DNA of 56,811 nucleotides. Origin: a virus. Lineage: Duplodnaviria > Heunggongvirae > Uroviricota > Caudoviricetes. The DNA is taken from the IMG/VR virus record IMGVR_UViG_2698536317_000003. One strand, given 5' to 3'. Made by a program: the position numbers and the translations under genes. Of the stretch, positions 4,265 through 55,654 are shown one piece after another (positions within the stretch are counted from its first letter, which is position 1; every line of letters starts with the position of its first letter). The notes under the pieces are model-generated. The model had not been told where the DNA came from. It saw only the letters and a program-made list of their open reading frames with translations, and did no database searches.

Positions 4265-4423
4265 CGCAATGACTCCATTATGTTAATTAACGGAATAATT
4301 CTACCATTTTGTGATCTTTGTTGCATTTTCTGCTTACACAAAATGTATTTGTTGATTTATGTCAATGTTGCGTAAATGCGGTTTATGGATACTACAAACA
4401 ACGAAACAACGGAGGGTAAGACA

Positions 4424-5654: not shown

Positions 5655-8600
5655 TTACCATGATCCGGTAATTCGTCCAATTTGGACGCGCAACCTACCG
5701 TTTCCATCCCTAACGGAAATGGTTGTATTTGTTAGTTTCATCGCGCCCTCACCACTTACAGAACCGTAGTTTTCAAATGTGCCTGATTTATCCAGCTTCC
5801 AGCCTGTGCTATTGGAAACATAGTTGTTTGATTGAATGTATGAACCAATTTTTGCATTAGTGATTGACGCGTCTTTAATAAACGCCTCGCGCACATACAT
5901 TGCACCGTTAGACACATAGAAAGGCGTTGTATATGTGCCGTTTGCTGCGGTCATCAATACGAAGCGGTCAACAAGGAAGATACACTGCGATTGAACGTTA
6001 GTACCGTTTCCAGTCAGCCCAAGCGACATACCTGTTGCATACTTCATGCCGTTGTTGTCGGTTGCCAGCTTGATGGAATACGTCGCATCGACATTACCTT
6101 TGAAGTCGGTTAACGCTTTTGACGTCGTTTCTATCGCTGTTGTGTTCCCGTTAACGGTCACTGTTAGCTGATCGATTTTGCTTGATAATGCCTCGTCAGC
6201 CGTTGCCATAGACTGTGACCATTCTGTAATACTTGAGTTTACGGAATCGAAAGACGCTGAGATCTGGACGAATTTTTCAGCGCTTGATGCTTCATGCGTA
6301 GAAAGCGCCGTTGATACCTCAGACACCTTCGAGTTAATCGTACTGGTAAGCGATGAGTTAAGGCTACTTATCGCGTCAGTGCGTGCCTTCGTTTCGTCTG
6401 CAATTGCCTTGTCAATACGGGTCACGTTGCTTGTAACTTTGCCATCAAGGGTTGAAATTGACGCATTCACGCCACTGATGGCTTGTGCTCTGGCGCTGGC
6501 CTCATCAGCAATCGCCTGGTCCAGTCTGCTAACTTCGGATTCAGTGTTGCTTTCGAGGGTGTTAATGCTCGCATTCACTCCACTGATAGCTTCGGTTCTT
6601 GCGCTGGTTTCGTTGGCAATAGCCTGATCCAAACGTTTAACGCTGGCGTCGGTTTTCTTGTCGAGCGCTGAAATGCTTGCGTTAACGTCGCTCACTGCCT
6701 GGCTGCGTGCGCTGGTTTCGTCGGCGATGGCCTGATCAAGGCGGGAAACACTCGCTTCGGTTTTCTTATCAAGATCCGTGATCGATGCTTTTACCACGCT
6801 AACCGCTTCCGCTGTAGCCTTTTTCTCTTCAGCGATAACATTGTCAATACGGTCAATTTGCGCGTTGGTTTCTTTGCGTCCTTTCTTGTATTGGGCAGTA
6901 AGAGTAACACGCGTGTTGGTTTGAGCGATTGAGTTGTTAATCAGAGCAATCGAGGCGTTTTGCAGGCTTGCTTTGGTCTGGCTTATTTCGTCGCTGTTCT
7001 TGTCAACGTTGTTTTCAACCTTACCCAGTTCGGCGCTGATTCCAGATATAGCCTGCGCACGGGCGCTTGACTCGTCAGCAATAGCCTGGTCCAAGCGTTT
7101 GACGCTGGCGTTTGTGTTACTTTCGAGCGTTGTTAAATCAGCTTTGACCTCTGTTATTGCGTCGCTTCTTGCCTGAGTTTCGTCAGATATTGCCTTATCG
7201 AGTCTGCTCACGCTGGCGTCGGTTTTGCTTTCAAGATTGCTTATTGAGGCATTAACGCCGCTGATTGCCTGCGCACGGGCGCTTGATTCGTCGGCAATTG
7301 CTTGATCAAGACGGTTCACGCTGGCGTCAGTTTTCTTGTCAAGATCAGCGATCGATGCGTTCACGTTATTAATTGCTTCTGCGCGGGCGCTTGATTCGTC
7401 TGCCACTGCGCGTTCCACGCTGGAGATCTGACCCTTAAGGTTGGAATCCATCGTGTTCATTTCTGCCGTGATGGTTTTCAGCGATTCAGCCGTGGCCCGC
7501 TTCTCTTCGGCAATAACGTTGTCGATGCTGTCAATCTGCGCGTTTGTTTCTGATTGCCATTTCTTGTACTGTGCAGTGAGCGTAACCCGCGTGTTGGTCT
7601 GCGCGAGAGAGTTATTAATCAGCGCCAAAGATGCGTTTTGCAGGCTTGCTTTTGCTTGCGCCAGTTCGCTGTCGATTCTTTCGCTGGATACCTCTAGCGA
7701 GTCAATCCTTACCTCATGTTGCCCAATACCATCGGTGTTTTCACCAACCTTTTTATAAAGATCTTCCGTCTCTTTTTTCAGCGTGTCAGTGTCAGCTTTT
7801 ATTTCACCTGTTTCTGTGATTAAGCTGTCAGTGTCAGTCCTCAATTCGTCAGTGATGTTTGTCAGGTTGTCAGTTGCAGTTTTTAGGTTGTCAGTAGCGT
7901 TTTTAAGGTCATTTGTGGCGCTTTCGATAAGGTCGGCACGGTCGCCAAGATCTTTAATGTCGCCAATCATGTCCTTGAACTGTTCTGACTCCATGACATC
8001 CTTCATCACGTAGTCGCTGATTTCGTCGAAGTTTTCAGTCGGTTTTCCTGATGCCTCAACGAAGTCTGACACACCGAAAGCGTTACGCGTGCGCACATAA
8101 ACGTAATATTTATGGCCCGTGTTCATGCCGCCAAAAGTCCATTGGTAGCCTCGCCCGGTGAATTGCGCCAAAGTTGTTACTTTTGACGGGTCAGTGATCT
8201 GATTTTCACCTGAGTAGTAAAACTCATATGCTGTATCAGTTGTCAGGGTTGTTTTGCTGATCGGATACACTGTTGCCTGGAAAACGCCAGGAACCCAATT
8301 AACACCAATCGGGGCGGCTGGCGCACCAATGACCAGATCCACAATACTTTCCGCACCCTTCATGCCAGTGTCATTACGCCCGCGAATACCAAGCGTGTAG
8401 CTGCCAGCGTCGAGGCCATAAAAATCATAGCGGTAGTTCGTGGTTTCATAAGTTGCCACTACACGCCCATCGGCGTTATATACGCGAATTTCAAAGGTCA
8501 GGCGATGCGTTGTTGTCTGTGTTTCCCACGTTGCGCGACATTGAACAGTTTCAGAACCAACATTTAACACCTTCAGGTTTTCGATGTTCGGCACGCGGAA

Positions 8601-12365: not shown

Positions 12366-12384
12366 TTTCTCACCTTGTCATTTT

Positions 12385-12400
12385 GTGATCTGTGTCACGC
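12385..12400 (+). promoter_or_regulatory. CRP-like palindrome TGTGA-N6-TCACG upstream of the L/M moron
   Basis: tgtgatctgtgtcacg read directly; TATACAAT -10-like hexamer about 35 bp downstream. Confidence 0.4.
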
Positions 12401-12494
12401 TAAATCATACCAAAATGGATTGATCGCGGTTTATACAATATGTATATTTTACTCAAACGGAAGCACAGTTAACAAAATGGCGCGGAGGTGTGAG

Positions 12495-13998: not shown

Positions 13999-14023
13999 GA
14001 TTCCCCCTATAAGTTACATATTG

Positions 14024-14055
14024 TATACATCTTTACGCGTTGCTACGCGAAAAAT
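14024..14055. promoter_or_regulatory. Conserved 31-bp element ATACATnTTTACGCGTTGCTACGCGAAAAAT, copy 1 (upstream of M / moron E)
   Basis: Near-identical copy at 26650-26680 upstream of portal; contains inverted repeat CGCGT-AGCA-ACGCG on the minus strand. Confidence 0.4.
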
Positions 14056-14167
14056 GATAAATTCGTCACAAGAATTATACCCAGTTTACGAAATGGCTTC
14101 ACACAGGACGCAACAAGATGTATATAGAAAGCAAGAAGAGAAAGCAGTACCAACAAAGGGGGCCAAT

Positions 14168-17888: not shown

Positions 17889-18147
17889 GATTTAACCTCA
17901 TACAAAATATGATCTATGCCTCTATTTTATACAAAATGGATTTACCTCAGTGAACACATTTTGTATAAAGAAGCCAAAGGAAAGGGATAGAGCGAAGGGA
18001 CTTAAAAGGCCGGATTGACCGGAGGAAGCAAAAGAGGATAAGAAAATGAAAAACGTAAACTACCACCCCAACGAACATGAGCGCTATGCTGACTTTATCG
18101 AGCAAATGTTAAAAGCGCTGAAAAACAAAAACTAAGCGGGGTGAAAT

Positions 18148-25322: not shown

Positions 25323-26655
25323 CGTCCTCCTCTTCCGTTTCTACTTCACTGGCTGGGCCATCGTATCCGGCAGCCTCGCGGATCTCGTCACCGCTAAATA
25401 TTTCTTCACCAGTAGCCAGACAAGCCTGATTGATTTGTGCCATTTTGTCTGCGGCTTCCAGTAGCTCTGCTTTGGTCATGGCGTTAAGGTCGTCCCATAG
25501 CACTGATACATCTACTGGCATACTGATAAGGCGTAGATCTGCCATCTTGCGGAACAGATCTTCAATCTCGCCACCGATTTCCTCCCTGCGGGTCATGCAG
25601 CGGCTGTTGAAGTAACGCAGGTCTTCGGTTGATGCACGCTCTCCCTGTTGGTTCCCAACCAGGATGCGGGTTGGAATATCAACACCAGCGGCGGCGGTTT
25701 GCAGGTTTACATCATAGGTTGATGACGGGTCAGACACGGCAGTAACCAGCGGGCTTACTGTCGCACCCTGTAACGCCATCATTACGTCATTACCCTTATT
25801 CATTTCAGCCGTAGCCTCATTGAATCTTTCGCGTAACTCTGTAACGTCGCAATCGTATGTTGCAGCCAGGGAACGGAAGTCAATCTCTTTATCGAACGAA
25901 ATAGCAAGCTGACGCGCTGCGTTTTTCAGGAATGATTCACCACTACCGCCTTCCACTTTTTCCAGTGATACGAATGCGTTGTAGGAAGGTTCAAGGAAAG
26001 CGATGACATCATCAGAATAGTCGCCAAAGATGAATATGCGGTCAGGGTGGATCTTTCTGGCAATGGTCTTACTGTTAATGCGTTCTTTGTATTCCCACCA
26101 TGTCGGCAGGCCATAATTTTCACTGTCCGGGTCTTCTTCGAACTCCTTCGGTGTAAGAGCGCCAGCCCACACAGGGGTAAATTTGGCAATACCTACGCCT
26201 TTTGTCACTGGCTGATCCCACGGCTGGTTATCTCTGACATGAATCAACAGACCAGCATAACGACCAATGAGGCGGCGGCGATCACATTCAGCAACAGTGC
26301 GCCAAAATCTGTTGTTAAATTTCTTCTTGATTTCTCTTTCCCACGGTGTTTCCTTTTTCGCTTTCTCGTCTTCAGTTCCCTCAATCATCTTTGGCTTGGT
26401 GCGCCAGCAAGTCGTAACAATCTTTTCTACAGCACCGTGAGCGATGCCGCCGCGTCTGTACAGTTTGTATAGATCGTGGTACGTGATCTCTTCTTTGAAT
26501 CCGTATTCACTCCACGCAGCATCACGTTTGGCATCTATCCCCATAGTGAATGGGTTGGCTGCGGCATAGCGGGCGTAGGCCGCCTGGCGTTGTGACAAGG
26601 CAGCATTAACCGCCAATTCTAAATTGGATGGCATAATGTTTACTCCTGAATACAT
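25264..26655 (-). CDS. Portal protein
   Basis: 463-aa ORF after large terminase, acidic C-terminus; likely true start at internal ATG 26634 after AGGAG. Confidence 0.8.
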   Translation of the reverse strand: MYSGVNIMPSNLELAVNAALSQRQAAYARYAAANPFTMGIDAKRDAAWSEYGFKEEITYHDLYKLYRRGGIAHGAVEKIVTTCWRTKPKMIEGTEDEKAKKETPWEREIKKKFNNRFWRTVAECDRRRLIGRYAGLLIHVRDNQPWDQPVTKGVGIAKFTPVWAGALTPKEFEEDPDSENYGLPTWWEYKERINSKTIARKIHPDRIFIFGDYSDDVIAFLEPSYNAFVSLEKVEGGSGESFLKNAARQLAISFDKEIDFRSLAATYDCDVTELRERFNEATAEMNKGNDVMMALQGATVSPLVTAVSDPSSTYDVNLQTAAAGVDIPTRILVGNQQGERASTEDLRYFNSRCMTRREEIGGEIEDLFRKMADLRLISMPVDVSVLWDDLNAMTKAELLEAADKMAQINQACLATGEEIFSGDEIREAAGYDGPASEVETEEEDDDEGEEDNQANTSSRDNAI

Positions 26656-26680
26656 GTTTACGCGTTGCTACGCGAAAAAT
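26650..26680. promoter_or_regulatory. Conserved 31-bp element, copy 2 (upstream of portal start)
   Basis: tacatgtttacgcgttgctacgcgaaaaat matches 14024-14055 with one mismatch. Confidence 0.4.
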
Positions 26681-32204: not shown

Positions 32205-32405
32205 TCAATCATTTTTGCGCTCCTTAATGGCTCGCATGATGTTAATACGCATAGCGTCACTGAATGCGTATATCGTAATGAAAGGCCAGAAGACTAGCTC
32301 GAACCAAATAATGCCGTCACTATCAACAGCTTTCTGAAAAGCGCCCATTAAAATGACACCAGCCAGGTAAATTATAACTACCGCAACAATAATGCATTCA
32401 ATCAT
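32205..32405 (-). CDS. Small membrane protein (MIECIIVAVVIIYLAGVILMGAF...), full-length copy
   Basis: Starts inside 227-bp duplication copy 1 and extends into unique sequence. Confidence 0.4.
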   Translation of the reverse strand: MIECIIVAVVIIYLAGVILMGAFQKAVDSDGIIWFELVFWPFITIYAFSDAMRINIMRAIKERKND

Positions 32406-32529
32406 CTTCACCCCCAAGATCATGATAAATATCGTTAGGGTCTTCACCATGTTCCTCGCAAAAACGCTCAAATAGCGCCCAATTTTCAGAAAGAAACATG
32501 ATTAATAAATTTTTATACCACTCTTCCAT
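32398..32529 (-). CDS. Acidic small protein MEEWYKN...GGEDD (43 aa), copy 1
   Basis: GAGGA RBS; identical copy at 32625-32756. Confidence 0.4.
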   Translation of the reverse strand: MEEWYKNLLIMFLSENWALFERFCEEHGEDPNDIYHDLGGEDD

Positions 32530-32539
32530 TTAATCATCC

Positions 32540-32632
32540 TCAGTCACTATCAACAGCTTTCTGAAAAGCGCCCATTAAAATGACACCAGCCAGGTAAATT
32601 ATAACTACCGCAACAATAATGCATTCAATCAT
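32540..32632 (-). CDS. Truncated small membrane peptide (30 aa) created by the duplication junction
   Basis: Same N-terminus as 32205-32405 ORF, stop created at repeat junction. Confidence 0.3.
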   Translation of the reverse strand: MIECIIVAVVIIYLAGVILMGAFQKAVDSD

Positions 32633-32756
32633 CTTCACCCCCAAGATCATGATAAATATCGTTAGGGTCTTCACCATGTTCCTCGCAAAAACGCTCAAAT
32701 AGCGCCCAATTTTCAGAAAGAAACATGATTAATAAATTTTTATACCACTCTTCCAT
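32625..32756 (-). CDS. Acidic small protein MEEWYKN...GGEDD (43 aa), copy 2
   Basis: Identical to copy 1; start abuts stop of upstream ORF. Confidence 0.4.
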   Translation of the reverse strand: MEEWYKNLLIMFLSENWALFERFCEEHGEDPNDIYHDLGGEDD

Positions 32757-33011
32757 TTAATCATCCTCATCGTCTTCATGTTCAGCCAGGAACTCATCAA
32801 CCACGCGGCAAGTCACTGGCGGGATGTATTCGAAATCATCAGAATCAAGATCAAGCGTCCGGCTGTCGCCGTCATCGTCCAGCGTATTCATCCCTAACTC
32901 ACCGAAAGGGCCATACCCAATATGGCCCAGGTATTCGCATCCAGTAGTAAAGCCAGGGTATTCGCCTTTGCACCAGATCTTGTATAGCTTACTTGATGCG
33001 CTCAATTTCAA
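32757..33011 (-). CDS. Hypothetical protein (84 aa, acidic C-terminus)
   Basis: ORF in small-gene block. Confidence 0.35.
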   Translation of the reverse strand: MKLSASSKLYKIWCKGEYPGFTTGCEYLGHIGYGPFGELGMNTLDDDGDSRTLDLDSDDFEYIPPVTCRVVDEFLAEHEDDEDD

Positions 33012-33917: not shown

Positions 33918-34127
33918 TTATCCTTCTTTGCCTCCCTTGAACCCCAAACACTCCGCGTATTCGTCAATGCTTAATGCTTCTTCACCTGGTGCCAGTAGTT
34001 CGAAGTATCTGGCATATAACTCAAACACCCAGGCAGGATATTTTGCGTTTGCGTTCATCTTCTTGCCCCCCCATCCGTCTTTCTGTGGCTTATATATAAC
34101 AAAATGGCACTGCCGAAACAATGCCAT
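33918..34127 (-). CDS. Hypothetical protein (69 aa)
   Basis: Start ATG lies inside a CCATTTTGTATAC motif. Confidence 0.3.
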   Translation of the reverse strand: MALFRQCHFVIYKPQKDGWGGKKMNANAKYPAWVFELYARYFELLAPGEEALSIDEYAECLGFKGGKEG

Positions 34128-34174
34128 TTTGTATACATTGTGATACGAGTCACATTTTGCGCAATTAACTTTTA

Positions 34175-39262: not shown

Positions 39263-39383
39263 AATGCTCTCTCCTTTTAAGGTGATTTCTACGCATTTCA
39301 GCGCTGCCGGATTTTTAAAGAGCATTTTGCTTGCTTGAAGTATACAAAATGGATACGTGTAAACAAGACGAATAGCGCCATTA

Positions 39384-39399
39384 TGTGATCCACATCACG
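39384..39399. promoter_or_regulatory. CRP-like palindrome TGTGA-N6-TCACG nested in a 29-bp palindrome
   Basis: ccattatgtgatccacatcacgcaatgg read directly (39378-39406). Confidence 0.4.
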
Positions 39400-39421
39400 C
39401 AATGGCGCCATTTTGTAAATT

Positions 39422-40210
39422 TCAGTCCGGCAAAACGCGGTTGAGCGTAGTACGATTGATGGCCCTGTCGTTAGCCAGGAACACAGCACGGGCAAAGCCG
39501 CGCGGCGTTAGTGAGCGGATCATCTTAGTGCGTTTCGACTTTCCTCCCAACTTCGCGTGCTGCTTACTGTCTTCCCATTCGTCCGGCATTGGCACAGGCC
39601 GGAACAGCGGCTGTTTAAATCCGTTGCCGCACCAAATACAAGTTTTCTTCGTGTATGCGTCGCGGGCCGCTATGTATTCAGGGAAGGCAGGATGTTTGTC
39701 ATCTTCCGGCAGGTAGCCACCGTAAGCGCACGGGTTGAAAATAAAATCAGGTTTACGCCATAGCGTTGACAGTGCGCCCACCGGATTTTCCACCATCCAC
39801 GGCACGTTATACATATTCGCCAGTTTTTCTACCAATTTTGCGTTATACGCCGCCTTTACCTGGAAAGCAGGATCTTTTTTTCGCTTATCAGCGAACCAGC
39901 GAGCACCAGACACAGCGAGATCGTCGCACGGCGGAAAGCCCAATATAATGTCAGGTGCTGGATAAGAAGATAATTCAGGTGAGAACATTGCCAGGAAATG
40001 GCTGTCAATCCATACGTTAACGTATTCAATATTCGGATGAATGATTTTAACGCCTTCATAATCGCCGTGGTTTGCGCCGTCATAGTTGAAGCAATAGCAC
40101 TTATACCCAGCTTCCGCCCAGTCTTTAACGGCGTACCCGCTGCCGTCGTACAGCGACCACACAACCCAACTTCTAAGCCAATTATTTAACCAGTGTTTAG
40201 CCTTGCTCAT
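39422..40210 (-). CDS. Divergent DNA cytosine-C5 methyltransferase-like protein
   Basis: Motif I-like LYDGSGY, motif IV-like GFPPCDDLAVSG, motif VI-like ENPVG. Confidence 0.45.
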   Translation of the reverse strand: MSKAKHWLNNWLRSWVVWSLYDGSGYAVKDWAEAGYKCYCFNYDGANHGDYEGVKIIHPNIEYVNVWIDSHFLAMFSPELSSYPAPDIILGFPPCDDLAVSGARWFADKRKKDPAFQVKAAYNAKLVEKLANMYNVPWMVENPVGALSTLWRKPDFIFNPCAYGGYLPEDDKHPAFPEYIAARDAYTKKTCIWCGNGFKQPLFRPVPMPDEWEDSKQHAKLGGKSKRTKMIRSLTPRGFARAVFLANDRAINRTTLNRVLPD

Positions 40211-42898: not shown

Positions 42899-42998
42899 CT
42901 TGTTTTTCCTCCGCGCCGTAAACCTTTTGATTTCAGTTCACAAAACGGATTTACGATCACAACACAAAATGTATTTCTATGTGATCGCCATCACTATG

Positions 42999-46252: not shown

Positions 46253-46401
46253 TCTTTAATCTCCTTCGCTGTTAACACTATGTATAAGGCTTTATTCGCG
46301 GCGCTCCACATTTCGGCATCGTGAAGCATTTCCGCTACCGCAAGTTTGAATTGAAGCGCCTCGATAACCATAATGTAACCTCCGAATGTTTACATTTTGT
46401 A

Positions 46402-46692
46402 TTAATGGTAACGGACTTTATCCAGGGGTTTCCCCCCTAAATGGCGTGGTTGCGTTGCGTGGTAGTAGCTGCCGCTTTCATTTTCCGTATACCATTTTAC
46501 TGATCCTTTGCGACGTTCTTTAATGCTATTTGGTTTGCACCTTTCCTCGTTTGCAAATCGAATAGCTTTATCCACATTGTCTGTTTTATTAATTGCAGGT
46601 GATGATTTTCTTTCGTTTTCTCTTTTTATCCTTCTGCGTTCCCTGGCGTTCATTTTGCTATCACATTTTCCATACATAATTGTAACGCTCAT
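46402..46692 (-). CDS. Arginine-rich N-like putative antitermination protein
   Basis: First gene of leftward operon; N-terminal ARM-like NARERRRIKRENERK; GGAG RBS; downstream of nut-like site. Confidence 0.4.
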   Translation of the reverse strand: MSVTIMYGKCDSKMNARERRRIKRENERKSSPAINKTDNVDKAIRFANEERCKPNSIKERRKGSVKWYTENESGSYYHATQPRHLGGKPLDKVRYH

Positions 46693-46786: not shown

Positions 46787-47041
46787 GCTTAACATCTTTC
46801 AACTAATCCCGCAATCATCGCCGTTCCCGGCGTGACCTTGCTCACTCCAAGCAAGCTGACTCGTCGCCTTGCGTGCGGTTTCGTGGGGGATGTAACGCTT
46901 TAAACACCCCATGCGCCTTGTTATCAGTGCCGCTTTCGGTCCCCCCATTGGGGAGTTACTCCACGGTTGACAAGGTGTTAAGCCTGATTTTTAAAGTGCC
47001 AGGAAGCCGCTTTTGTTACCTGCGCCCTTCCTTTGACTCGC

Positions 47042-47070
47042 AATATACGCCCCGTAAAACACCGAGTCAA
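47042..47070 (-). promoter_or_regulatory. Sigma70-like leftward early promoter (pL-like)
   Basis: Minus strand TTGACT-17 nt-TATATT; flanked by 9-bp inverted repeat TTGACTCG/CGAGTCAA and a CCATTTTGTATAC motif. Confidence 0.5.
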
Positions 47071-47160
47071 TCCATTTTGTATACTTTTTTAAAACATTTT
47101 ATATGTTATTGATATTTAAACAATAAATAACGTTTTCTGTTTACGTTTTGGTGCTTTCAT

Positions 47161-47193: not shown

Positions 47194-47841
47194 TTATGGC
47201 AGGTTTACGATCTTCGCATCAACTACCACGCCTATGATTTTTGATTCTGGATTCATAGGGATTGGCGGATACAGCGGATTGAGCGAACGTAAAAGCCTTT
47301 GACCTCCATCAATAATCAACTGTTTAAACGTCGGTATCTGCCCTTCCTCAAGCTGGGCTATAACCAGTTTGCCGTCAATAGCTGGCGCGTGCGGGTCCAC
47401 GAGTATCATCGTCCCCGCCGGGATGCTCAACCCCTGCGGCGCGTTCATTGATTCACCTTTGGCAACCAGCCAGTAACTATCATCTGAACAAATAACGCTA
47501 GTCGTAACGTGTGGTAATGCTGATCGCCTTGTGTCATCCATATTGTTTACTGTATCCTTCCAGTCAATAACCGGGTAACTACCTAAATCACGCGGCGGTG
47601 CGGCCTGAAGTGTATTAGAAACAGAATCATCAATGACCATACCATCATGTGTAACAGTGAACTGCCGACGACCAAGCGCCCGCATAATCCGCGCAATATC
47701 TTCAAGATTTGGCTCGCGGCGACCGTTCAGCCAGTGTGACAGGCCGCCTTTAGTTATCCCCATGAGATCTGCGAGTGAATCCTGACTCATGCCCTGCGCC
47801 CGCATGAGCTGCTTTGCTAAGTCATACCATTTTGTTTTCAT
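47194..47841 (-). CDS. CI-like repressor (HTH_XRE N-terminus, LexA/S24 peptidase-like C-terminus)
   Basis: N-terminal HTH (SQDSLADLMGITKGGLSHWLNG) and C-terminal GESM...K autocleavage-type domain. Confidence 0.85.
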   Translation of the reverse strand: MKTKWYDLAKQLMRAQGMSQDSLADLMGITKGGLSHWLNGRREPNLEDIARIMRALGRRQFTVTHDGMVIDDSVSNTLQAAPPRDLGSYPVIDWKDTVNNMDDTRRSALPHVTTSVICSDDSYWLVAKGESMNAPQGLSIPAGTMILVDPHAPAIDGKLVIAQLEEGQIPTFKQLIIDGGQRLLRSLNPLYPPIPMNPESKIIGVVVDAKIVNLP

Positions 47842-48146
47842 GTCGCTACCCTATAACCTCAAAAAGTTTGATGCAAGTCACAAAACGTGTATTTTAAGCC
47901 TTGATCTTAAAATTCCATTTTGTAAACTTGCAGACAAGGTAAGGCCATACTTGCAAAGACGCAAGGAAAAAGATAACGGAAGGCACAAAAAGGCACATAC
48001 CTTAAGCTCTTTAAAAATCCGGTGTCGCTGCGAAGCGAAAAACAAATATCACGCAACGGCGGGATCTGTTGAGCGGTCAGTCACTGCTATCTAATGCTAA
48101 TGGGATGCCCGCCCGCGCGTTCATTTTAACCATAGGAGAAAATACA
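47842..48146. promoter_or_regulatory. Divergent immunity control region (OR-like) with nutR-like element
   Basis: CTTGCA-type palindromes, CCATTTTGTAAAC motif (47915-47927), boxA-like GCTCTTTAAAAAT with GNRA hairpin TCGCT-GCGA-AGCGA (48001-48029). Confidence 0.4.
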
Positions 48147-48401
48147 ATGAGCATGAACATGATTAGCGAAGTATGGAAAGTAAAACTTAACAGCCCGATT
48201 CAAAAACTGGTCTTAATGGCTCTGGCTGAAAAGGCAGATAACCGCCGTCACGTCATGGTATCACGACAAGAAATTGCAAAAATGTGTGAACTTCCTGTTC
48301 ATACGGTACATGATGCCTTCGCCGCGTTAATGCATAAAGGGTTTGTTTGTCGTCTTGATGCGTTCAGTGATGTCTATGTAGTGATGTTACCGGAGGAATG
48401 A
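48147..48401 (+). CDS. First rightward early gene; small HTH regulator (Cro/CII-position)
   Basis: AGGAG RBS; 84 aa; stop 3 nt before replication gene start. Confidence 0.4.
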   Translation: MSMNMISEVWKVKLNSPIQKLVLMALAEKADNRRHVMVSRQEIAKMCELPVHTVHDAFAALMHKGFVCRLDAFSDVYVVMLPEE

Positions 48402-48404
48402 TCT

Positions 48405-49451
48405 ATGAAGTGGTTTAAGCATGATAGCGATGCGAACCGCGATGAAAAACTTCAAAACGTCTTGCTTGATTATGGCCTGGAAGGGTACGGGCTTTATTGG
48501 TATTGCCTCGAACTAATAACTTATGACGTAGATCAGCACAATCTAACTTTTGACCTACGACATGACGCGAGAATCATTGCGCGAAACGTCGGATCGACTG
48601 AAAAACGTATAGAAGAAATGATGAAATACTTCATCGAAATTGGTTTGTTTGAATGTTCTCAAGGCCACATAACTTGTTTAAAGTTATTGAAAAGGCTGGA
48701 CCAATCAATGACTTCTAAAAGCGCATACAGGGCAGCCATAAACACAGCGAAGGAGCAATTAAAATTAGAAAAGTTAATCAATCCAACACAAAAAGGTCAT
48801 GATAGGGTCATGACCGGGTCAGGAAAGGGTCATGAATTAGAATTAGAAGTAGAAGAAGAAAGAGAAGAAGAAAAGAAAAATATAAAAAGAAAAGAAGTCA
48901 ATCAGGACGGTGATTTCCAGGTAAGCGAGGCGGCTTATCGTTGCTTAGCCTTCTACAACGACAAGGCTGGATGCAAATGTCGTGATGCTAAGCCATTCAT
49001 CGAACTACTGACAGAAACAAAAACACGTAAAGCGTATACGGAGGATGAGATCACATTAGTGATTGAGTGGGCTTTAACGCAATGGCGTAGCCGTGGCGGA
49101 ACACCTAAACCTATCAACATTTGCCGGGTAACTAAATTTGACGGGTATCTTGCTGATGCTGAACAATGGCGCAATCTGTCAGTTACTGTAAACGCTGCCG
49201 ATGTGGTAAATGAGTTTAACATCACGTTTGATGGCCTGTTGCCACCTGCTGAACTGGATCGGGATCTTGAACGTAAAATATATGCGTTCACTGACTACCT
49301 GAAAGACAAAAGCATTAACGGATTTATCGCCTACTTTGAAGCATTCAAGAGCAAGGCTTCAGACTTTTACTTCGGCGATGGCTTCACAGCGACACTTGAT
49401 TTCCTGCTTAAACCAAAAACGCTACGCGATACACGCGCAGGCGCTCTTTGA
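48405..49451 (+). CDS. Phage replisome organiser / replication initiation protein (DUF4373-like N-terminus)
   Basis: N-terminal MKWFKHDSDANRDEKL...GLEGYGLYWYCLE signature; acidic linker. Confidence 0.6.
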   Translation: MKWFKHDSDANRDEKLQNVLLDYGLEGYGLYWYCLELITYDVDQHNLTFDLRHDARIIARNVGSTEKRIEEMMKYFIEIGLFECSQGHITCLKLLKRLDQSMTSKSAYRAAINTAKEQLKLEKLINPTQKGHDRVMTGSGKGHELELEVEEEREEEKKNIKRKEVNQDGDFQVSEAAYRCLAFYNDKAGCKCRDAKPFIELLTETKTRKAYTEDEITLVIEWALTQWRSRGGTPKPINICRVTKFDGYLADAEQWRNLSVTVNAADVVNEFNITFDGLLPPAELDRDLERKIYAFTDYLKDKSINGFIAYFEAFKSKASDFYFGDGFTATLDFLLKPKTLRDTRAGAL

Positions 49452-49818
49452 CCAACCACGATCCACAAAAACCCAAAATAACCCGCAAAACAAGCTCGCC
49501 AGCGAGATAAATCGCATGTGGTGCTACACTTGCTTACCTTTTTGCGATTAGCTCGTTATAGAGCGTTACAGAGAGGATTTCAAAAATGGACGGTAAACAC
49601 GTTTTTGCCCTGGTCTTTGCCATCGCTGCGGCAATCGCTGTTAACGTCGCTTTGTTCGGCGGTTTGTTCCTTCTAGTCAATCCATAACCTACCCACCATT
49701 CTGTAAATCAAAAATTAGCCACCTGAGAGCGTCTATAACGCAATAAGACACTGCAACCTGTGCAAACGGGTTACGCGGTGGAATTTTGCGTTGTAGAGCG
49801 TTTTACGGAGAAAATACA

Positions 49819-50559
49819 ATGTCTGATTTAATGGTTTTTGATGTCGATAGCGAAGTATTAATGATTTCATCGCGTGAAATAGCAGAAGCAACAGGCAAGG
49901 ATCATTCTTCTGTGGTTGTGCGTGATATTAAAAACATGCTGATCGATTTAGGGTTTACTGAGCATGATTTTTATCCTGCAAAAATGCAGGATTATGAATT
50001 TATAGGGTTTTTGTTTAAGTACAAGCACTACAACGGTCGCAACGTCATTGATGAGGTTTTGCTAAATAAAGAGCTAACAATGTGCTTGATCACTGGCTAT
50101 GACGTTAAGCAACGCATGAAGGTAATTAAACGCGTTAAAGAGTTGGAGGAGGCGCAACACAAACTAGCTTTGCCGGATTTCACTGATCCGGTTGCGGCAG
50201 CCCGCGCATGGGCGGATGAGGTAGAGCAAAAATTATTAGTTAAGCAAGAAAATGAACGGCTTACACTGGTTAACAAACAGCTTGCGCCAAAAGCTGCTGT
50301 ATGTGACGCGATAGTCAAAAACGATATGCACCGCACGGCTTCAGAGGTAGCTAAACCGCTGGGAATGTCAGCCGTAAAATTAAACAGAAAACTTTCGGCG
50401 GTTGGTGTTTATGATCTTCGCTGTCGCCGCCGTGTATTCAGTCAGTGGTTTATTGATGAGGGCTACGGTGAAATGAGGGTAACTCACGATGGATATGAGC
50501 AGGCTGTATTCACTGCTAAAGGACAAGTATGGATTACTGAGCTTTTAACTTGTAACTAA
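49819..50559 (+). CDS. Antirepressor (Rha-like N-terminus, KilAC-like C-terminus)
   Basis: About 246-aa ORF with recalled Rha/KilAC-type sequence features. Confidence 0.6.
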   Translation: MSDLMVFDVDSEVLMISSREIAEATGKDHSSVVVRDIKNMLIDLGFTEHDFYPAKMQDYEFIGFLFKYKHYNGRNVIDEVLLNKELTMCLITGYDVKQRMKVIKRVKELEEAQHKLALPDFTDPVAAARAWADEVEQKLLVKQENERLTLVNKQLAPKAAVCDAIVKNDMHRTASEVAKPLGMSAVKLNRKLSAVGVYDLRCRRRVFSQWFIDEGYGEMRVTHDGYEQAVFTAKGQVWITELLTCN

Positions 50560-50593
50560 GTATACAATTTGTTATTCGTGAGGAAATGACACT

Positions 50594-51712
50594 ATGTCAC
50601 AAAGAAAAATCAGCGATGAGCAATTGATCGCTGAATATAACAACGGTTTAACGTACAAGCAGATCGCTGAAAAATATGGCATGTCAAAACGCAACGTCGA
50701 GCGGCTAGGCGCAAAACTGGCGAAACGCGGTTTAATATCCACGCGTCGCGCACCGGGTTTTGGCGTCAATGCTGAGTCATTGCTCGTCGATAAGGATGGC
50801 AATGTGATCATGCGCTGGATTAAAACAGCCCGTGACCGCGACGAAATGGAACAGTTAATGGAAGCGGCCCGCGACGCTTTCACGGATGAAATACCACGCG
50901 CGGAGGCTGTGCCAGTGCCTGAAATTGATTTTCAAAAAAGCCTAGCCCTTTATCCGGTGTTTGATCTGCATATCGGGGCGCTTGCTCATAAAGCTGAATG
51001 CGGCGAGAGCTACGACACTGGGATCGCTGAGCGCGTGTTGAATGACTTCTTTGACTACGCTGTTGGCGCTGCTCCGATGTCTGAAAAAGCCGTACTGCTC
51101 CTCGGTGGCGATCTGCTTCATTCTGACGGTATGGTCCCGGTGACGCCAATAAGTGGGCACATTCTTGATCAAGATAGTCGCTACGCAAAACTTGTTTATG
51201 TGGCGATCCGGTCTGTCCGGCGGGCGGTAGGTAAAATGTTGTTAAATCATAAGGATGTTGAAATCCAGGTGTTATCAGGCAATCACGATCAGTCTGGTAT
51301 GATTTGGCTACGTGCGGCGCTGGCGGCTTTTTACGAAGATGAACCGCGCGTGACGGTTGATGTGTCACCTGCTATCGTCCACCACACGCAGTACGGTAAA
51401 ACATTTCTTGCTTACCACCACGGGCACACTATCAAAAAGCCAGAGAATTTATTGGCTGCTTGCATCTCTGACTGGCGGGATGATTTCGGGAAGTCAGTTG
51501 CTGTTTACGCCCACTGCGGGCACTGGCATCATCAACGGCTGATTGAATCATCGTTGGGCGTTGTTGAGTATCACGGCACGTTAGCCGGTAAAGACGCTTA
51601 CTCAACTAATGGCGGCTGGCGGTCACGTCGTATGGCGGCGGTGATTATTTACAGCCAGGATCATGGGGAGATCGGGCGCTTTGTTTATTACCCTGAATAC
51701 TCCATTTTGTAA
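50594..51712 (+). CDS. HTH-domain protein fused to calcineurin-like metallophosphoesterase domain
   Basis: N-terminal HTH (LTYKQIAEKYGMSKRNVERL); phosphoesterase motifs DLHIG, GGDLLHSDG, GNHDQ, GHWHH. Confidence 0.55.
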   Translation: MSQRKISDEQLIAEYNNGLTYKQIAEKYGMSKRNVERLGAKLAKRGLISTRRAPGFGVNAESLLVDKDGNVIMRWIKTARDRDEMEQLMEAARDAFTDEIPRAEAVPVPEIDFQKSLALYPVFDLHIGALAHKAECGESYDTGIAERVLNDFFDYAVGAAPMSEKAVLLLGGDLLHSDGMVPVTPISGHILDQDSRYAKLVYVAIRSVRRAVGKMLLNHKDVEIQVLSGNHDQSGMIWLRAALAAFYEDEPRVTVDVSPAIVHHTQYGKTFLAYHHGHTIKKPENLLAACISDWRDDFGKSVAVYAHCGHWHHQRLIESSLGVVEYHGTLAGKDAYSTNGGWRSRRMAAVIIYSQDHGEIGRFVYYPEYSIL

Positions 51713-51730
51713 ACCGGAGGTAATGACATA

Positions 51731-53146
51731 ATGGTAACTGAGCAAATGAACTCACTACGGCAGGAACGTGAAGCGTCAGTTATCGGCGGGCTGCTGTTAG
51801 GCGGCCTAACTCCTAACGCACAAGATGTTCTCGCCACTCTTGATCCTGAAGTGTTCACGATTCCGCTGTATAAACGTGCGTTTGAAGTTATCCGGGCGCA
51901 AGCCAGAAACAGAAATCTTATCGACGCGTTATTGGTTGGCGATGAGATTGGCAATGAAAACTTTGTACCGCTAATGCAAACGGCGCGATCGTGCCCGTCT
52001 GCTGCCAACCTGAAGGGATACGCACAGCTACTACGTGAAGAGCACCAGCGGCGGCAGATGTTGGAACTCATCGACGATATGCGCTACAAACTGGAAACGG
52101 GGACGCTTGAGGTCGTCAAAGAGACGATGAAAGACTTTGATTCCCGGTATTCAAAATTGAAGGTAACGAAAGACAAGATCATTCCGGTGTTGTTGCGCGA
52201 TGCGGTACAGGAATACACGGAGGTGTTAAGCAAACGCATGGAATGCGGTGTCAATTCTGACAACATCAAAACAGGGATAGAACCACTCGACGAAATGTTA
52301 GGCGGCATTAACGCTACTGATCTGGTGCTTCTCGCCGGGCGCCCTGGGTCTGGTAAATCTGCGTTGGCGCTGGCAATTGCCCGCGCTGCTGCTGAACGCC
52401 CTTACCCTGGCAGCAAGGATCAGCGGGTTGGCGTTTTGTTCTTCACGCTTGAAATGTCACTCGATCAGATGACTGAACGCGCTATAGCTGGCGCTGGTAA
52501 TTTATCAACCGACTGTCTGCGTAATCCGGTAAAACTTGATGATGAGGGGTGGGCGCATGTTGGTCAGGGTATGAGCGCACTTGCTAATCTTGACGTGTGG
52601 ATCGTTGACGCATCGCAGTTAACGGTTGAGGAAATACGCGCCACAACGGAACGGATGAAACAGGAGCATCCCAACCTGGGTATGGTAATGATTGACTACA
52701 TCGGGTTGATGAAGCTGGCTAAGGCTGAACGTCATGATCTCGCCGTAGGGCAATTATCATGGTCGTTGAAGATGATGGCGAAAGAATTGCGCGTACCGGT
52801 GTTGGCGCTGGCGCAATTATCCCGCCGCGTTGAGGAACGACCGAACAAGCGTCCTAACAATTCTGATCTGCGCGATTCCGGTAATCTTGAGCAGGACGCT
52901 GACAGGATAATCATGGTATACCGCGATGGCTACTACGATGAGCAGTCTGTAGCCCGCGAATATATGGAAATCATTGTATCTAAAAACCGTCACGGCAAAT
53001 CTGGCACTGTTTACCAGCGGTTTGATGACAACGGCAATATCTTACCATGCGACCAGGCCCGCGCGGCTGCGGCGTGTATTCAGTCTATGAATCATCGTAC
53101 AAGCAGATTTAACCAACGAAACAACCAGAATAACGCATCCTTTTAA
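51731..53146 (+). CDS. Replicative DNA helicase (DnaB-like)
   Basis: Walker A GRPGSGKS, SDLRDSG and RecA-fold motifs; 471 aa. Confidence 0.9.
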   Translation: MVTEQMNSLRQEREASVIGGLLLGGLTPNAQDVLATLDPEVFTIPLYKRAFEVIRAQARNRNLIDALLVGDEIGNENFVPLMQTARSCPSAANLKGYAQLLREEHQRRQMLELIDDMRYKLETGTLEVVKETMKDFDSRYSKLKVTKDKIIPVLLRDAVQEYTEVLSKRMECGVNSDNIKTGIEPLDEMLGGINATDLVLLAGRPGSGKSALALAIARAAAERPYPGSKDQRVGVLFFTLEMSLDQMTERAIAGAGNLSTDCLRNPVKLDDEGWAHVGQGMSALANLDVWIVDASQLTVEEIRATTERMKQEHPNLGMVMIDYIGLMKLAKAERHDLAVGQLSWSLKMMAKELRVPVLALAQLSRRVEERPNKRPNNSDLRDSGNLEQDADRIIMVYRDGYYDEQSVAREYMEIIVSKNRHGKSGTVYQRFDDNGNILPCDQARAAAACIQSMNHRTSRFNQRNNQNNASF

Positions 53147-53222
53147 TCAATATGAGCAAACGGCTTACCAGAAAGTTTACCGCTTTCTGGTGGCTGTTAT
53201 CGCGTTTAAAGCGAGGCTGAAA

Positions 53223-53750
53223 ATGAAAACTTCATACCAACAACAAATAATTGATTTTTTAAATGACGCTGTTATTTCAGGTGAGGGAACGATAGTTAAA
53301 TCTATTCCTGGGCCGGAAGGTGAAATAATTTGCGCTTTGGATGCTTTAGTTTCTGATGGCGTTATTATCAAAGTAGATCTAAATAGTAAAAGATTATCAT
53401 ATTGCTTGAAGTCAGTAAGAGAAATGGCGATAAGGGATATAATCCCTTTGTTTTCAAATAGTAGCGGGTATTTTTCAGCGGAAGATGTTAAAAATGAATT
53501 GAATATTAATATAAACAAAGGAAAGGTCGGGAGAATATTGCGGATGTTAGGAAGTGAGAACCTATTAACTGTTAATAAGTTTGACGGTAAATATTTTTTC
53601 AGAAACGCGCGTTTTTATGGTTATTCAAATGTTATCGCATTTAATTTTAGTAACTTATTAAACGAATACCGTAAAAATAACGGCCTGCTACCGGATAAAC
53701 CAATATTTGAGATCGAAAAACTTAACGGCGAAACGGGGTTGGAATTATGA
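53223..53750 (+). CDS. AT-rich hypothetical protein (about 175 aa), possible winged-helix; candidate moron
   Basis: Visibly AT-rich relative to flanks; ORF begins MKTSYQQQIIDFLN. Confidence 0.5.
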   Translation: MKTSYQQQIIDFLNDAVISGEGTIVKSIPGPEGEIICALDALVSDGVIIKVDLNSKRLSYCLKSVREMAIRDIIPLFSNSSGYFSAEDVKNELNININKGKVGRILRMLGSENLLTVNKFDGKYFFRNARFYGYSNVIAFNFSNLLNEYRKNNGLLPDKPIFEIEKLNGETGLEL

Positions 53751-53953
53751 GACGGGTAATTTTTTATTCAGTTGAAACGTTTGTCGACGATACGCGCGTT
53801 TATTATCCGTGGGAAGTATACGACGCAAAGGTGTATACACCGCCACTGATGCGGAAATATAAACACGTAAAATTTAACCGGGTTTTCGTGCCAATGCGCG
53901 ATGCATTACGGGCGCTGCGTGGGGAATTAAGAAACACAATGCGGATTGTGTAA
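53747..53953 (+). CDS. Hypothetical protein (68 aa)
   Basis: ORF overlapping stop of previous gene. Confidence 0.35.
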   Translation: MRRVIFYSVETFVDDTRVYYPWEVYDAKVYTPPLMRKYKHVKFNRVFVPMRDALRALRGELRNTMRIV

Positions 53954-53962
53954 GGGGGAATC

Positions 53963-54190
53963 ATGAACAAGGATTTAGAATTGACCGTGGAGGATTTAAG
54001 CACGATCGCGGAATACAAGCGCGGCGGTGATCCTGATAAACCTGTTACGGTTGATATGAAATATTTAAAAGGCGCTTTTATGACTTCTTCAAGATTGATA
54101 AGTCTTAAAGCAATTATAAAGGCGCGCTGGGAAAGTTGGCAGGAATACAAAGCGAAAAATAAGGTGAAAAGAAATAATGCGGCAAATTAG
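53963..54190 (+). CDS. Hypothetical protein (75 aa)
   Basis: GGGGGAATC RBS; upstream of ninB. Confidence 0.4.
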   Translation: MNKDLELTVEDLSTIAEYKRGGDPDKPVTVDMKYLKGAFMTSSRLISLKAIIKARWESWQEYKAKNKVKRNNAAN

Positions 54191-54605
54191 ATTTGAGATA
54201 GTCAACGACGCCGTGAAAGAAAACGCTATCAGGCAGATAAGAGAGATCCAGCCTGATAGCAAAAGCCCGCTGATAATTACCATCCAGGAGAAAACCCGCT
54301 CGCTAAGCCAAAACGCGTTGCTTTGGGCGCTGTTAACCGACATTAGCGATCAGGTTAATTGGTACGGTAAGAAGCTGTCGCCGGAAGACTGGAAAGCGGT
54401 ATTTACTGCCGGGCTTAAGAAATATGGCGTCGTCCCTAACCTGGATAAATCCGGCTTTGTTGTATTGGGGACATCAACCAGCCGGATGAGTAAATCAGAA
54501 TTCAGTGAACTAATCGAGCTGATCTACTCGTTCGGCGCTGAACATGATGTTCAATGGTCTGGCGATACGAAATTAAACGAGGAATTCATAAAACGCTGGG
54601 GGTAA
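54177..54605 (+). CDS. ninB: Recombination protein NinB
   Basis: Strong similarity to recalled lambda NinB (ITIQEKTRSLSQNALLWALLTDIS...VVPNLDKSGFVVLGTSTSRMSKSEF). Confidence 0.85.
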   Translation: MRQIRFEIVNDAVKENAIRQIREIQPDSKSPLIITIQEKTRSLSQNALLWALLTDISDQVNWYGKKLSPEDWKAVFTAGLKKYGVVPNLDKSGFVVLGTSTSRMSKSEFSELIELIYSFGAEHDVQWSGDTKLNEEFIKRWG

Positions 54606-54607
54606 TA

Positions 54608-54784
54608 ATGGCGCGTTATTACATGGCTAAACCTACAGGAATTTTGTATAAGGTTGATGGCGAATATGTTTATTACTTCCACAACCAGGCGCGGGAGTGG
54701 CGATTGTGTCACGCGCACTTCAAGCACGAAATAGAAAATCACCCTGAATACTTTATCAAAGTTGACAATGTAACGGTGGCGTAA
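54608..54784 (+). CDS. Hypothetical protein (58 aa)
   Basis: ATG 54608 immediately after ninB stop. Confidence 0.4.
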   Translation: MARYYMAKPTGILYKVDGEYVYYFHNQAREWRLCHAHFKHEIENHPEYFIKVDNVTVA

Positions 54785-54785
54785 T

Positions 54786-55436
54786 ATGGCAAATAAAACA
54801 CCTCGTGCAATAGGCACAATGTTCCACCGCTTCCGTGGTGATATTCAGCCTTTTGAAGTAACCACGTTTTCAAGTTATTACGATTTTGGGACGGAGTATT
54901 ACGCCGGATCTAAGGTAGGCGGTGAATCTTATACGCTGATGGCTAATACGTGGCGCTTTGTGCGTTACTCTGAAAAGGATGGTGACGGTATGAATAAAGA
55001 AAGTGAAATCATTGATGAATTAATCGAAGATGAGCGCCATGATTGCGATGCGCCGGAAGTTACGGAATGGAAACCAGGAGAAAAGCCGCCGTGCGGCGTG
55101 TGGCTTGATTGTATTGGATTAGCAAGTGATAGAGTGATTGATGTCGTTAAGTTTTTCTACCTGGGCGATAAGTGGTCTATTGCTCACAGTAAGTTAGAAA
55201 CGGGTATAGAAACACCGATTGCATGGAAACAATACTCATACCGCATTCACATTGACCCGAAAGAAAAAGCAATGACACGAATTGCGTTTGCGCTGGCTGT
55301 TGAGGTTATTGGTGGAGATGCGGCAAAAGAGATTAACTTTAACCGCGACAACGAATTTTCGCGCGATTGGCGCAATATGGCAAAAGCCATTATTAATGGC
55401 GATATTCCTTTTACTAATTACAATGGTGATGAGTAA
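54786..55436 (+). CDS. Hypothetical protein (216 aa)
   Basis: ORF tightly coupled to flanking genes. Confidence 0.5.
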   Translation: MANKTPRAIGTMFHRFRGDIQPFEVTTFSSYYDFGTEYYAGSKVGGESYTLMANTWRFVRYSEKDGDGMNKESEIIDELIEDERHDCDAPEVTEWKPGEKPPCGVWLDCIGLASDRVIDVVKFFYLGDKWSIAHSKLETGIETPIAWKQYSYRIHIDPKEKAMTRIAFALAVEVIGGDAAKEINFNRDNEFSRDWRNMAKAIINGDIPFTNYNGDE

Positions 55437-55654
55437 TGGATAAGATCGGGACAATACTTATTAACCGTGAGCAAGTGCAAAAAATGTTAGGCGGGCTTAG
55501 CAAGTCCGCCTTTTTTAAGCTCGTTAAAAAATGGAAAGAAGCGGGAACTCCTTTCCCTGAACCTGTAAAGGGGATGCCAGCATTAAAGCGCGGGGGATCT
55601 CTTTACCGTTATCAGGACGTTATTTCATTTTGTAAATCGATGGGCTTCATGTAG
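55436..55654 (+). CDS. Excisionase-like / small DNA-binding protein
   Basis: 72-aa ORF adjacent to and converging on the integrase gene. Confidence 0.45.
   Translation: MDKIGTILINREQVQKMLGGLSKSAFFKLVKKWKEAGTPFPEPVKGMPALKRGGSLYRYQDVISFCKSMGFM

Follow-up and report, generated by a model that had tools for sequence, protein, structure and literature searches.

In phage lambda, the repressor CI acts at six sites, which form the operators OL and OR, flank the repressor gene, and overlap the early promoters. Each 17-bp site combines a consensus half with a weaker half, adjacent operators are 23-24 bp apart, and CI bound at -41 activates rather than represses. In phage P1, a single immunity repressor, C1, occupies asymmetric 17-bp operators that are scattered over the whole genome and belong to separate operons, including that of the antirepressor; C1 is unrelated in sequence to repressors of the CI/LexA type. 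The stoperators of phage L5 are 13-bp asymmetric sites found genome-wide in short intergenic gaps and in one orientation to transcription, some of them within operons, where they could act as roadblocks only; their binding protein, gp71, is not a CI/S24 protein.

The mEpimmI phages form one immunity group and are reported to be as common as lambdoid phages in E. coli from the human gut. Expressed from a plasmid, their CI-like repressor, Rep021, gives immunity against every mEpimmI phage tested; unlike in lambda, the repressor lacks the Ala-Gly cleavage site and the lysogens are not UV-inducible. Three nut sites (nutL, nutR1, and nutR2) were described in this group, for which the same study names no operators, promoters, or repeated motif (PMC11893012).

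The stretch of DNA analyzed here (56,811 nucleotides; hereafter, the window) is an mEp021-like (mEpimmI) prophage of E. coli. Its immunity region is 88-90% identical to those of mEp021, mEp010, mEp515, mEp044, mEp554, mEp013, and MagusPhagus, and its identity to prophages found in 35 complete E. coli genomes reaches 98.9%. The genes are arranged in a minus-strand block, which contains three small plus-strand islands, and a plus-strand block (Table 1). The product of the repressor gene rep is 100% identical to a LexA-family protein of a related prophage. Domains PF01381 and PF00717 are assigned to Rep homologues, and the best match of Rep among solved structures is the lambda repressor (3bdn, E = 1e-19); thus, Rep clearly belongs to the CI/LexA family, with a helix-turn-helix (HTH) and a C-terminal S24 domain as in lambda CI. 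Unlike in lambda, no Cro-like gene was found opposite rep, in the region 47842-48146. The first gene of the leftward operon encodes an 84-aa winged-helix protein and is preceded by a 220-nt leader containing nutL. The nutR2 site has its own conserved sigma-70-like promoter, beyond read-through from pR; immediately upstream, a terminator (TERM_4) is annotated in the mEp021 record.

The recurrent motif CCATTTTGTA(T/A)AC is strongly overrepresented in the window. The exact word CCATTTTGTAWAC was found five times (0.01 expected in the whole window), the core CCATTTTGT of the motif 15 times (0.82 expected), and copies with up to two mismatches 24 times (4.27 expected); the core is the top overrepresented word of the window at lengths of 8, 9, and 10 nt under an order-3 Markov model. 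The recurrence claimed in the original prediction is therefore real, with counts far above those obtained by shuffling, and the mostly intergenic location proposed there is supported as well. Of the nine copies that deviate from the motif at no more than one position, eight are intergenic (binomial p ~1e-7), as judged from the RefSeq annotation of the closest prophage projected onto the window, whose intergenic share is 10.3%; the ninth copy overlaps the end of a gene and lies 17 nt ahead of the dnaB start. Two of the positions listed earlier are 10 nt off: the copy assigned to 39350-39362 in fact occupies 39340-39352 as a reverse complement, and that assigned to 4294-4306 occupies 4304-4316. 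Among the others, the copy at 17956-17968 has two mismatches, the one at 46392-46404 (ACATTTTGTATTA) is a three-mismatch variant within a near-palindromic 17-mer, and the one at 12378-12390 (TCATTTTGTGATC) overlaps a CRP-like palindrome. Both orientations relative to transcription occur. Most copies aim at a gene start 38-180 nt downstream; for the copies at 47072, 34124, and 39408 there is no gene downstream in the pointing direction, and these three, like the copy at 46392, run counter to the genes around them. A full-text literature search with the motif words and notations of the TAC-N5-GTA style returned only unrelated primers and the like.

Chance, base composition, or coding bias could in principle generate such words, as an A-rich leader followed by ATG and G at a start codon yields ACAAAATGG. 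At least three core matches, located at or just inside start codons, are accidents of this kind (21502, reading ACAAAATGG; 47827, the rep start; and 11637). As a general explanation it is nonetheless practically negligible, since no shuffle reached the observed counts, such as the 15 core matches, good copies are concentrated between genes, and copies are conserved at orthologous sites. A longer mobile repeat was rejected, as the flanks of the copies are unrelated, and an RNA element is unlikely, since Rfam and tRNA scans of the window yielded nothing. The first five codons of rep (47827-47841; ATG AAA ACA AAA TGG, encoding MKTKW, the conserved N-terminal arm) spell the motif-like word CCATTTTGTTTTCAT on the other strand, and the rep start codons of the related P0013 phage, considered below, likewise spell a motif-like word on the other strand; the word in the window might have arisen accidentally from the coding sequence or might serve in autoregulation.

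Related repressor loci suggested a 17-bp site, nnnn(C/A)C-N5-GTAWAC, as the full element, of which the motif forms the conserved part. The site is formed by one strong half (T-GTAWAC), a T-run in the center, and a degenerate half that keeps only C(C)A. A symmetric 17-mer model is modestly enriched (14 observed vs 6.25 in Markov simulations); near-palindromic 17-mers are found at 39340-39356 and 46388-46404, and elsewhere the left half is not conserved. A fully palindromic form, CCATTTTGTATACAAAATGG, was discarded, as the right flank is never AAAATGG, and so was a LexA SOS box (CTGT-N8-ACAG), as the sites read TTGTAWAC and the partner ACAG is missing at the required spacing. Altogether, at least 20 candidate sites were found in at least nine intergenic regions (Table 1). 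They are not confined to the immunity region, with good copies far from rep at 12468, 14084, 17927, 34124, 39340, 39408, and 51702.

Table 1. Genes, candidate 17-bp sites, associated promoters, and other repeated elements of the window (position 1 is its first nucleotide).
Feature	Position	Strand	Sequence	Context
Minus-strand genes	4660-47841	-		tail, head, lysis, Q, nin, dam/dcm, erf/ssb, N-like gp17, rep
Plus-strand genes	48147-55654	+		replication, helicase, antirepressor
rep	47194-47841	-		CI-like repressor, HTH_3 + peptidase S24, 215 aa; putative motif binder
Exact copies of the motif	34124 (+), 39340-39352 (-), 47072 (+), 47915 (+), 51702 (+)		CCATTTTGTAWAC	
pL site, putative operator	47911-47927	+	AATTCC-ATTTT-GTAAAC	covers spacer and -10
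pL promoter	47901-47928	+	-35 TTGATC (47901-47906), N16, -10 TAAACT (47923-47928)	nutL boxA at 48006
Weaker site by putative rep promoter	47877-47893	-	ATACAC-GTTTT-GTGACT	34 bp center to center from pL site
Strong pR site, putative operator	47068-47084	+	CAATCC-ATTTT-GTATAC	centered at ~-41
pR partner site, weaker	47043-47059	-	TTTTAC-GGGGC-GTATAT	covers spacer and -10; 25 bp from -41 site
pR promoter	47070-47042	-	TTGACT-N17-TATATT	
nutR2-promoter site	39340-39356	-	GTATCC-ATTTT-GTATAC	near-palindromic; covers spacer and -10
nutR2 promoter	39366-39339	-	TTGTTT (39366-39361), N16, TATACT (39344-39339)	directly upstream of boxA 39323-39312
Second site near nutR2	39404-39420	+	GGCGCC-ATTTT-GTAAAT	64 bp from first site
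Divergent pair, 42 bp	34111-34095 (-); 34120-34136 (+)		AGTGCC-ATTTT-GTTATA; AATGCC-ATTTT-GTATAC	
Promoter under 34095-34136 pair	34121-34093	-	TTGTTT-N17-TATATA	
Divergent pair, 42 bp	17927-17968			between tape-measure gene (-) and 119-aa gene (+)
Divergent pair, 14084-14125	14100-14084 (-); 14109-14125 (+)		GAAGCC-ATTTC-GTAAAC; CGCAAC-AAGAT-GTATAT	
Promoter at 14084-14125 pair	14098-14126	+	TTCACA-N17-TATATA	small gene + ParE-like gene
Site	12431-12447	+	TTATAC-AATAT-GTATAT	over -10 of TTGATC-N17-TATATT (12420-12448)
Site	12484-12468	-	carries CCATTTTGTTAAC	
Three weaker copies, 4271-4350	4275 (+); 4304 (+); 4346-4334 (-)		CCATTATGTTAAT; CCATTTTGTGATC; ACATTTTGTGTAA	
Two tandem copies, 24 bp apart	42936-42976	-	ACATTTTGTGTTG, CCGTTTTGTGAAC	upstream of small early gene (start 42898)
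Near-palindromic 17-mer	46388-46404	+	GTTTAC-ATTTT-GTATTA	3' end of gp17 (N-like gene)
Copy	49692-49708	+	CCATTCTGTAAAT	111 nt upstream of KilAC antirepressor gene
Exact copy	51698-51714	+		17 nt upstream of dnaB-like helicase start, within leftward operon
Divergent pairs at 25 bp (centers)	14092/14117, 17935/17960, 34103/34128, 47051/47076			
-10-like hexamers	47080-47085, 34133-34138, 39417-39422	+	TATACT, TATACA, TAAATT	
CRP-like palindromes	12385-12398, 34140-34153, 39385-39398, 42981-42994, 46832-46845		(T)GTGA-N6-TCAC(A)	
CRP-like palindromes, coding	9021, 11281, 40604		(T)GTGA-N6-TCAC(A)	
Tandem duplication, 227 bp	32316-32542 / 32543-32769			small-gene cluster upstream of lysis genes
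108-nt-period repeats	6370-7420			tail-tip J-like gene
Direct repeat, 34 nt	14022-14055 / 26647-26680		contains hairpin CGCGTTGCTACGCG	intergenic

In most cases the GTAWAC half, which contains TAWAC(T), also serves as a sigma-70 -10 hexamer: the six bases that follow CCATTTTG are mostly TAnAnT (TAAACT, TATACT, TATAAA, and the like), with a -35-like hexamer 16-17 nt upstream. Promoter hexamers other than those of pR were assigned by eye; a generic promoter scan with a cut-off of 9/12 recovered pR as the sole motif-linked promoter, the others scoring lower. Two arrangements can be distinguished. At pL and the nutR2 promoter, one operator-like site covers the spacer and the -10 hexamer, whereas pR and five further promoters have two sites, at about -16 and -41, mostly divergent and 25 bp apart from center to center. 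An inverted copy ends 1-2 nt upstream of the -35 hexamer at pR and at 12420 (+), 14098 (+), 17954 (-), and 34121 (-); read on the minus strand, the -41 site of pR is GTATACAAAATGG-A-TTGACT, ending 1 nt upstream of the -35 hexamer. A tandem version occurs at 42962 (-), where the upstream copy has the same orientation and is centered at about -40. Among 149 sites of a relaxed model, four divergent pairs are spaced at 25 bp, vs at most one at any other distance between 10 and 69. The recurring unit is thus a 42-bp cassette, in which the strong halves face outward as the -10 hexamers of back-to-back promoters and the -35 hexamers are central.

The regions that carry these sites are functionally diverse. 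Each copy of the 17927-17968 pair overlaps the -10 hexamer (TATAAA) of one of two back-to-back promoters, and the 14084-14125 pair also lies on a promoter that reads leftward into a minor tail gene. The 12431-12484 region is divergent, separating minor tail gene L (-) from an island (+) with a small antirepressor gene at its end, and the 4271-4350 copies lie upstream of a lipoprotein-like gene. Near nutR2, the sites at 39340 and 39404, the second of which falls inside the interval given in the original prediction, flank a CRP-like palindrome and belong to a 31-nt inverted repeat. The only long word common to both sides of rep is TCCATTTTGTA, which at pL covers the -10 hexamer and spacer and at pR directly adjoins the -35 hexamer. 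Hence two copies do flank the repressor gene, as had been proposed, 47072 on the pR side and 47915 on the pL side, with the promoters assigned the other way round. The promoter next to 47072 had been taken for pL-like and is the rightward early promoter in the mEp021 naming, leading into nutR1 and gp17, and the copy at 47915, attributed to an OR-like region, sits on pL. Plus-strand -10-like hexamers accompany three copies aimed away from annotated genes (47080, 34133, and 39417), which could give rise to antisense transcripts, e.g., into the 3' end of rep.

This geometry raises the question of whether the motif is a core-promoter signature only, with TAWACT as the -10 hexamer, the reverse complement ACAAAATGG, whose A-tract spans -43 to -40, serving a back-to-back promoter as a proximal UP-like element, and no dedicated DNA-binding protein. 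The TAnAnT hexamers at a plausible distance from a -35, the five promoters with a reverse complement 1-2 nt upstream of the -35, and the predominant aiming at gene starts all agree with this explanation, which we nonetheless regard as improbable. The conserved CC and the C at -8 of the hexamer are not sigma-70 determinants, and an extended -10 (TGn) was rejected, as in CCATTTTG followed by TAWACT the G abuts the hexamer (-13) and TG, one base out of register, is not at -15/-14. Copies 47072, 34124, and 39408 do not aim at a gene; two exact copies of the P0013 phage are reversed across the ribosome-binding site (RBS) and start of an antirepressor gene; and related site triplets accompany homologous repressors. 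The earlier proposal of a regulator site or a promoter element holds in both its parts: the motif overlaps -10 hexamers, and its CC-ATTTT portion, the fixed -41/-16 geometry, and its conservation exceed promoter features.

Conservation was assessed in 44 IMG/VR loci encoding Rep at 91-100% identity. Copies with at most one mismatch are present at pL in 40 of the 44 loci and at pR in 43. At pR, the block AAAAAAGTATACAAAATG and both the -35 and -10 hexamers are invariant in 35 distinct relatives, and the promoter spacer varies. At pL (26 distinct relatives), TGTAAACTTGCAG is invariant, including TGTAAAC, and the center at m6 (T/C/A), m1-m2, and the left half vary. Nearly all relatives retain the sequence CA...TG-TAWAC, with its inner CA-N3-TG symmetry, and the weaker 47877-47893 site is conserved as AC(G/A)TTTTGTGACTTG. 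The dnaB copy was observed in most of the 44 loci, and both it and the nutR2 pair are present wherever a locus reaches them; in mEp021, the copy stays beside dnaB despite an inserted HNH gene. The 17-mer of the nutR2 promoter, GTATCCATTTTGTATAC, shows single-position changes only, seen in a few of 34 distinct sequences, next to five freely varying spacer bases on its upstream side; conservation of its left half, GTATCC, next to the otherwise variable spacer is a further point against a plain promoter signature. The neighboring 39404-39420 copy keeps TTTACAAAATGG in most of the 34 relatives. In the 42936-42976 region, a CCGTTTTGTAAAC copy occupies the same relative position in approximately 18 of the 44 relatives. 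In five complete relatives, copies recur at orthologous intergenic positions with differing flanks: the tape-measure pair is unchanged in the five genomes except for m1-m2 of the right-hand copy, with 9 of the 16 bases between the copies varying. The 4304 copy is conserved in four relatives.

Homologues of full-length Rep were found at 55%, ~50%, and ~40% identity; a query with the 67-aa DNA-binding domain alone gave five near-identical matches only, so that the full-length query was needed, and the search for Rep relatives in representative bacterial genomes gave no confirmed locus. The P0013 repressor is 55% identical to Rep and has an identical recognition helix (ITKGGLSHWLNGRREP). The P0013 phage is a diverged member of the same lineage with a true HTH_3 Cro gene 124 bp from rep, and this gap contains three copies of the motif, CCATTTCGTATAC, CCAATTCGTAAAC, and CCATTTTGTGACT. 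As at pL of the window, CCAATTCGTAAAC is followed by TAAACTTGCA, and CCATTTTGTGACT adjoins the rep promoter, as does the site at 47877-47889 in the window; CCATTTTGTGACTTGAATCAA of the 47877-47893 site is also found at the equivalent place. At pR of P0013, ATATACAAAATGG lies 2 nt upstream of the -35 hexamer and its partner over the -10 hexamer, with the same 8-bp gap as in the window (ATATAC-AAAAT-GGTATT / CATCAC-AAGGC-GTATAG). Since the P0013 phages have many other genes in common with the window, the P0013 comparison taken alone does not single out Rep, in contrast to the more distant homologues.

Distant homologues with a similar HTH come from unrelated phage backgrounds: phage L c2 (X94331), VT2-Sakai cI, and the repressors of loci L051/L053, L058, and L060. 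In each case, three 17-mers of the form xxxTAC-N5-GTAxxx were found between the repressor gene and cro, vs 0.04-0.27 expected. The sites read GTATAC-N5-GTMTRT in L051/L053; GTATAC-GTTTC-GTATTC in L060, with GTATAC-ATTTT-GTATTG at its pR; and AATAC-N5-GTAnT in L058, VT2-Sakai cI, and phage L, whose C2 is 52% identical to Rep in the DNA-binding domain. The MKTKW N-terminal arm is kept in P0013 and L051/L053 only. By comparison with these loci, the window motif would correspond to the N5 center plus the strong half of a Rep-family operator, the other half of which appears reduced to CC. In a small sample, recognition helices with TKG go with T before ATAC and those with TQG with A, which hints at covariation of helix and site.

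A binder other than Rep, such as the winged-helix protein gp14, an antirepressor, an unrecognized Cro, or a host factor (e.g., an OmpR-like one), might recognize the same sites. The site is asymmetric, the motif word loosely resembles OmpR sites (ACATTTTGAAAC), with partial resemblances to TyrR and GalR sites as well, the window shows no evident Cro gene opposite rep, and in lambda-type switches Cro shares the operators of CI, which makes a second binder plausible. In the P0013 phage, however, the motif persists although gp14 is absent from its position there, and across unrelated phages the site type tracks the HTH family of the repressor. For a host factor, neither the rank of the motif core as top overrepresented word of the prophage nor the fixed -16/-41 positions would be expected. 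We therefore consider recognition primarily by such a protein rather unlikely.

A second recurrent element of the window is a CRP-like palindrome, (T)GTGA-N6-TCAC(A), with eight copies (0.55 expected). Four of them are located in motif-bearing intergenic regions, centered between about -59.5 and -63.5 from predicted promoters. The arms of the 39385 copy are invariant in 34 distinct relatives, in which the 6-nt center varies, and those of the 12385 copy are invariant in five genomes, again with a variable center. This pattern suggests an input of cAMP-CRP, or of another dimeric regulator, at these phage promoters. The palindrome was rejected as the true immunity operator, as it is absent from pL and pR. 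Other repeats of the window are a perfect 227-bp tandem duplication; 108-nt-period repeats of the J-like gene (six to seven copies, 63-82% identical), which fit the J C-terminal repeats noted previously (PMC11893012); and a 34-nt direct repeat (94% identical), located just upstream, in the gene direction, of a minor tail gene and the portal gene.

Taken together, we consider it likely that the Rep021-type, lambda-CI-like repressor recognizes an operator whose conserved core is CCATTTTGTA(T/A)AC. The assignment is based on the observations that the motif is enriched, mostly intergenic, placed characteristically with respect to promoter-like hexamers, conserved, and found together with one family of DNA-binding domains; Rep binding, cooperativity, and the repressive outcome we infer from the geometry of the sites and from the lambda, P1 C1, and L5 precedents. 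Rep dimers would bind the 17-mers. Since GTAWAC contains TAWAC(T) and the strong half doubles as a -10 hexamer, a bound repressor would occlude RNA polymerase; at pL, at the nutR2 promoter, and at the -16 sites, occupancy of the spacer and -10 would exclude the polymerase. At the paired promoters, the strong -41 site would probably recruit a second dimer to the weak -16 site via the C-terminal domains, in a lambda-like manner; the 25-bp spacing, near the 23-24 bp of lambda, would allow such pairwise cooperative binding. The two sites 64 bp apart that flank the CRP-like palindrome at the nutR2 promoter could form a loop. Rep would then silence at least nine intergenic regions, beyond the two early promoters: immunity control would extend prophage-wide through the copies that precede the two antirepressor genes (at 49696 and at island promoter 12420) and through those at the tail-region islands, the lipoprotein gene, and, at 51702, the helicase gene. 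As plasmid-borne Rep021 blocks all tested mEpimmI phages, its operators must be common to the group.

Several observations count against the operator assignment. For a dimeric CI, the scant conservation of the left half-site is unusual. At pR and four other promoters, the strong copy occupies -41, the activating position of lambda CI, so repression at these promoters would rest on the weaker -16 partner. Plain -10 function also explains much of the right half and might by itself account for part of the conservation, and copies are borne by the lipoprotein (exclusion) gene, which is expected to be expressed in lysogens.

In comparison with lambda, and with P22 C2 and phage L C2, the candidate system has in common the 17-bp sites with a consensus half and a weaker half, sites on both sides of the repressor gene that overlap the early promoters, and a similar distance between adjacent sites (24-25 bp). 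It differs from lambda in the number and dispersal of the sites, which extend into the tail-gene region, in the reduction of the left half-site to CC(A), and in the divergent pairs with strong halves outward at -41/-16. Phage P1 offers a parallel for one repressor with many scattered, asymmetric candidate sites and an antirepressor among the targets; the P1 consensus, ATTGCTCTAATAAATTT, is unrelated to the window motif. The copy at 51702, inside an operon and a possible roadblock, resembles the L5 stoperators, from which the present sites are distinguished by their two orientations and by the overlap of most of them with promoters. A more ambitious and decidedly more tentative scenario is that a CI-type repressor has evolved a genome-wide regulon of about 20 operators, in which 42-bp bidirectional -16/-41 cassettes and roadblock-like intra-operon sites converge on silencing of the P1 C1/L5 gp71 type, some island (moron) promoters possibly undergo class-II-type activation from -41, and the CRP-like sites at about -60 add host nutritional input.

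While a CI-type repressor with its operator is a system of a known kind, the candidate novelties are the operator sequence for the mEpimmI family, its dispersal, the degenerate half-site, and the 25-bp divergent bidirectional-promoter cassette. A defined operator is a direct target for EMSA, footprinting, and ChIP, and the Rep021 plasmid exists. Such an operator would explain group-wide immunity from a single repressor, and it predicts that the antirepressor genes, the second nut-linked promoter, and the tail-region islands are under immunity control. The cassettes also offer compact, repressible, bidirectional promoters. If this holds, the mEpimmI group would offer a case among coliphages in which promoters throughout a prophage are silenced by a repressor of the CI type.
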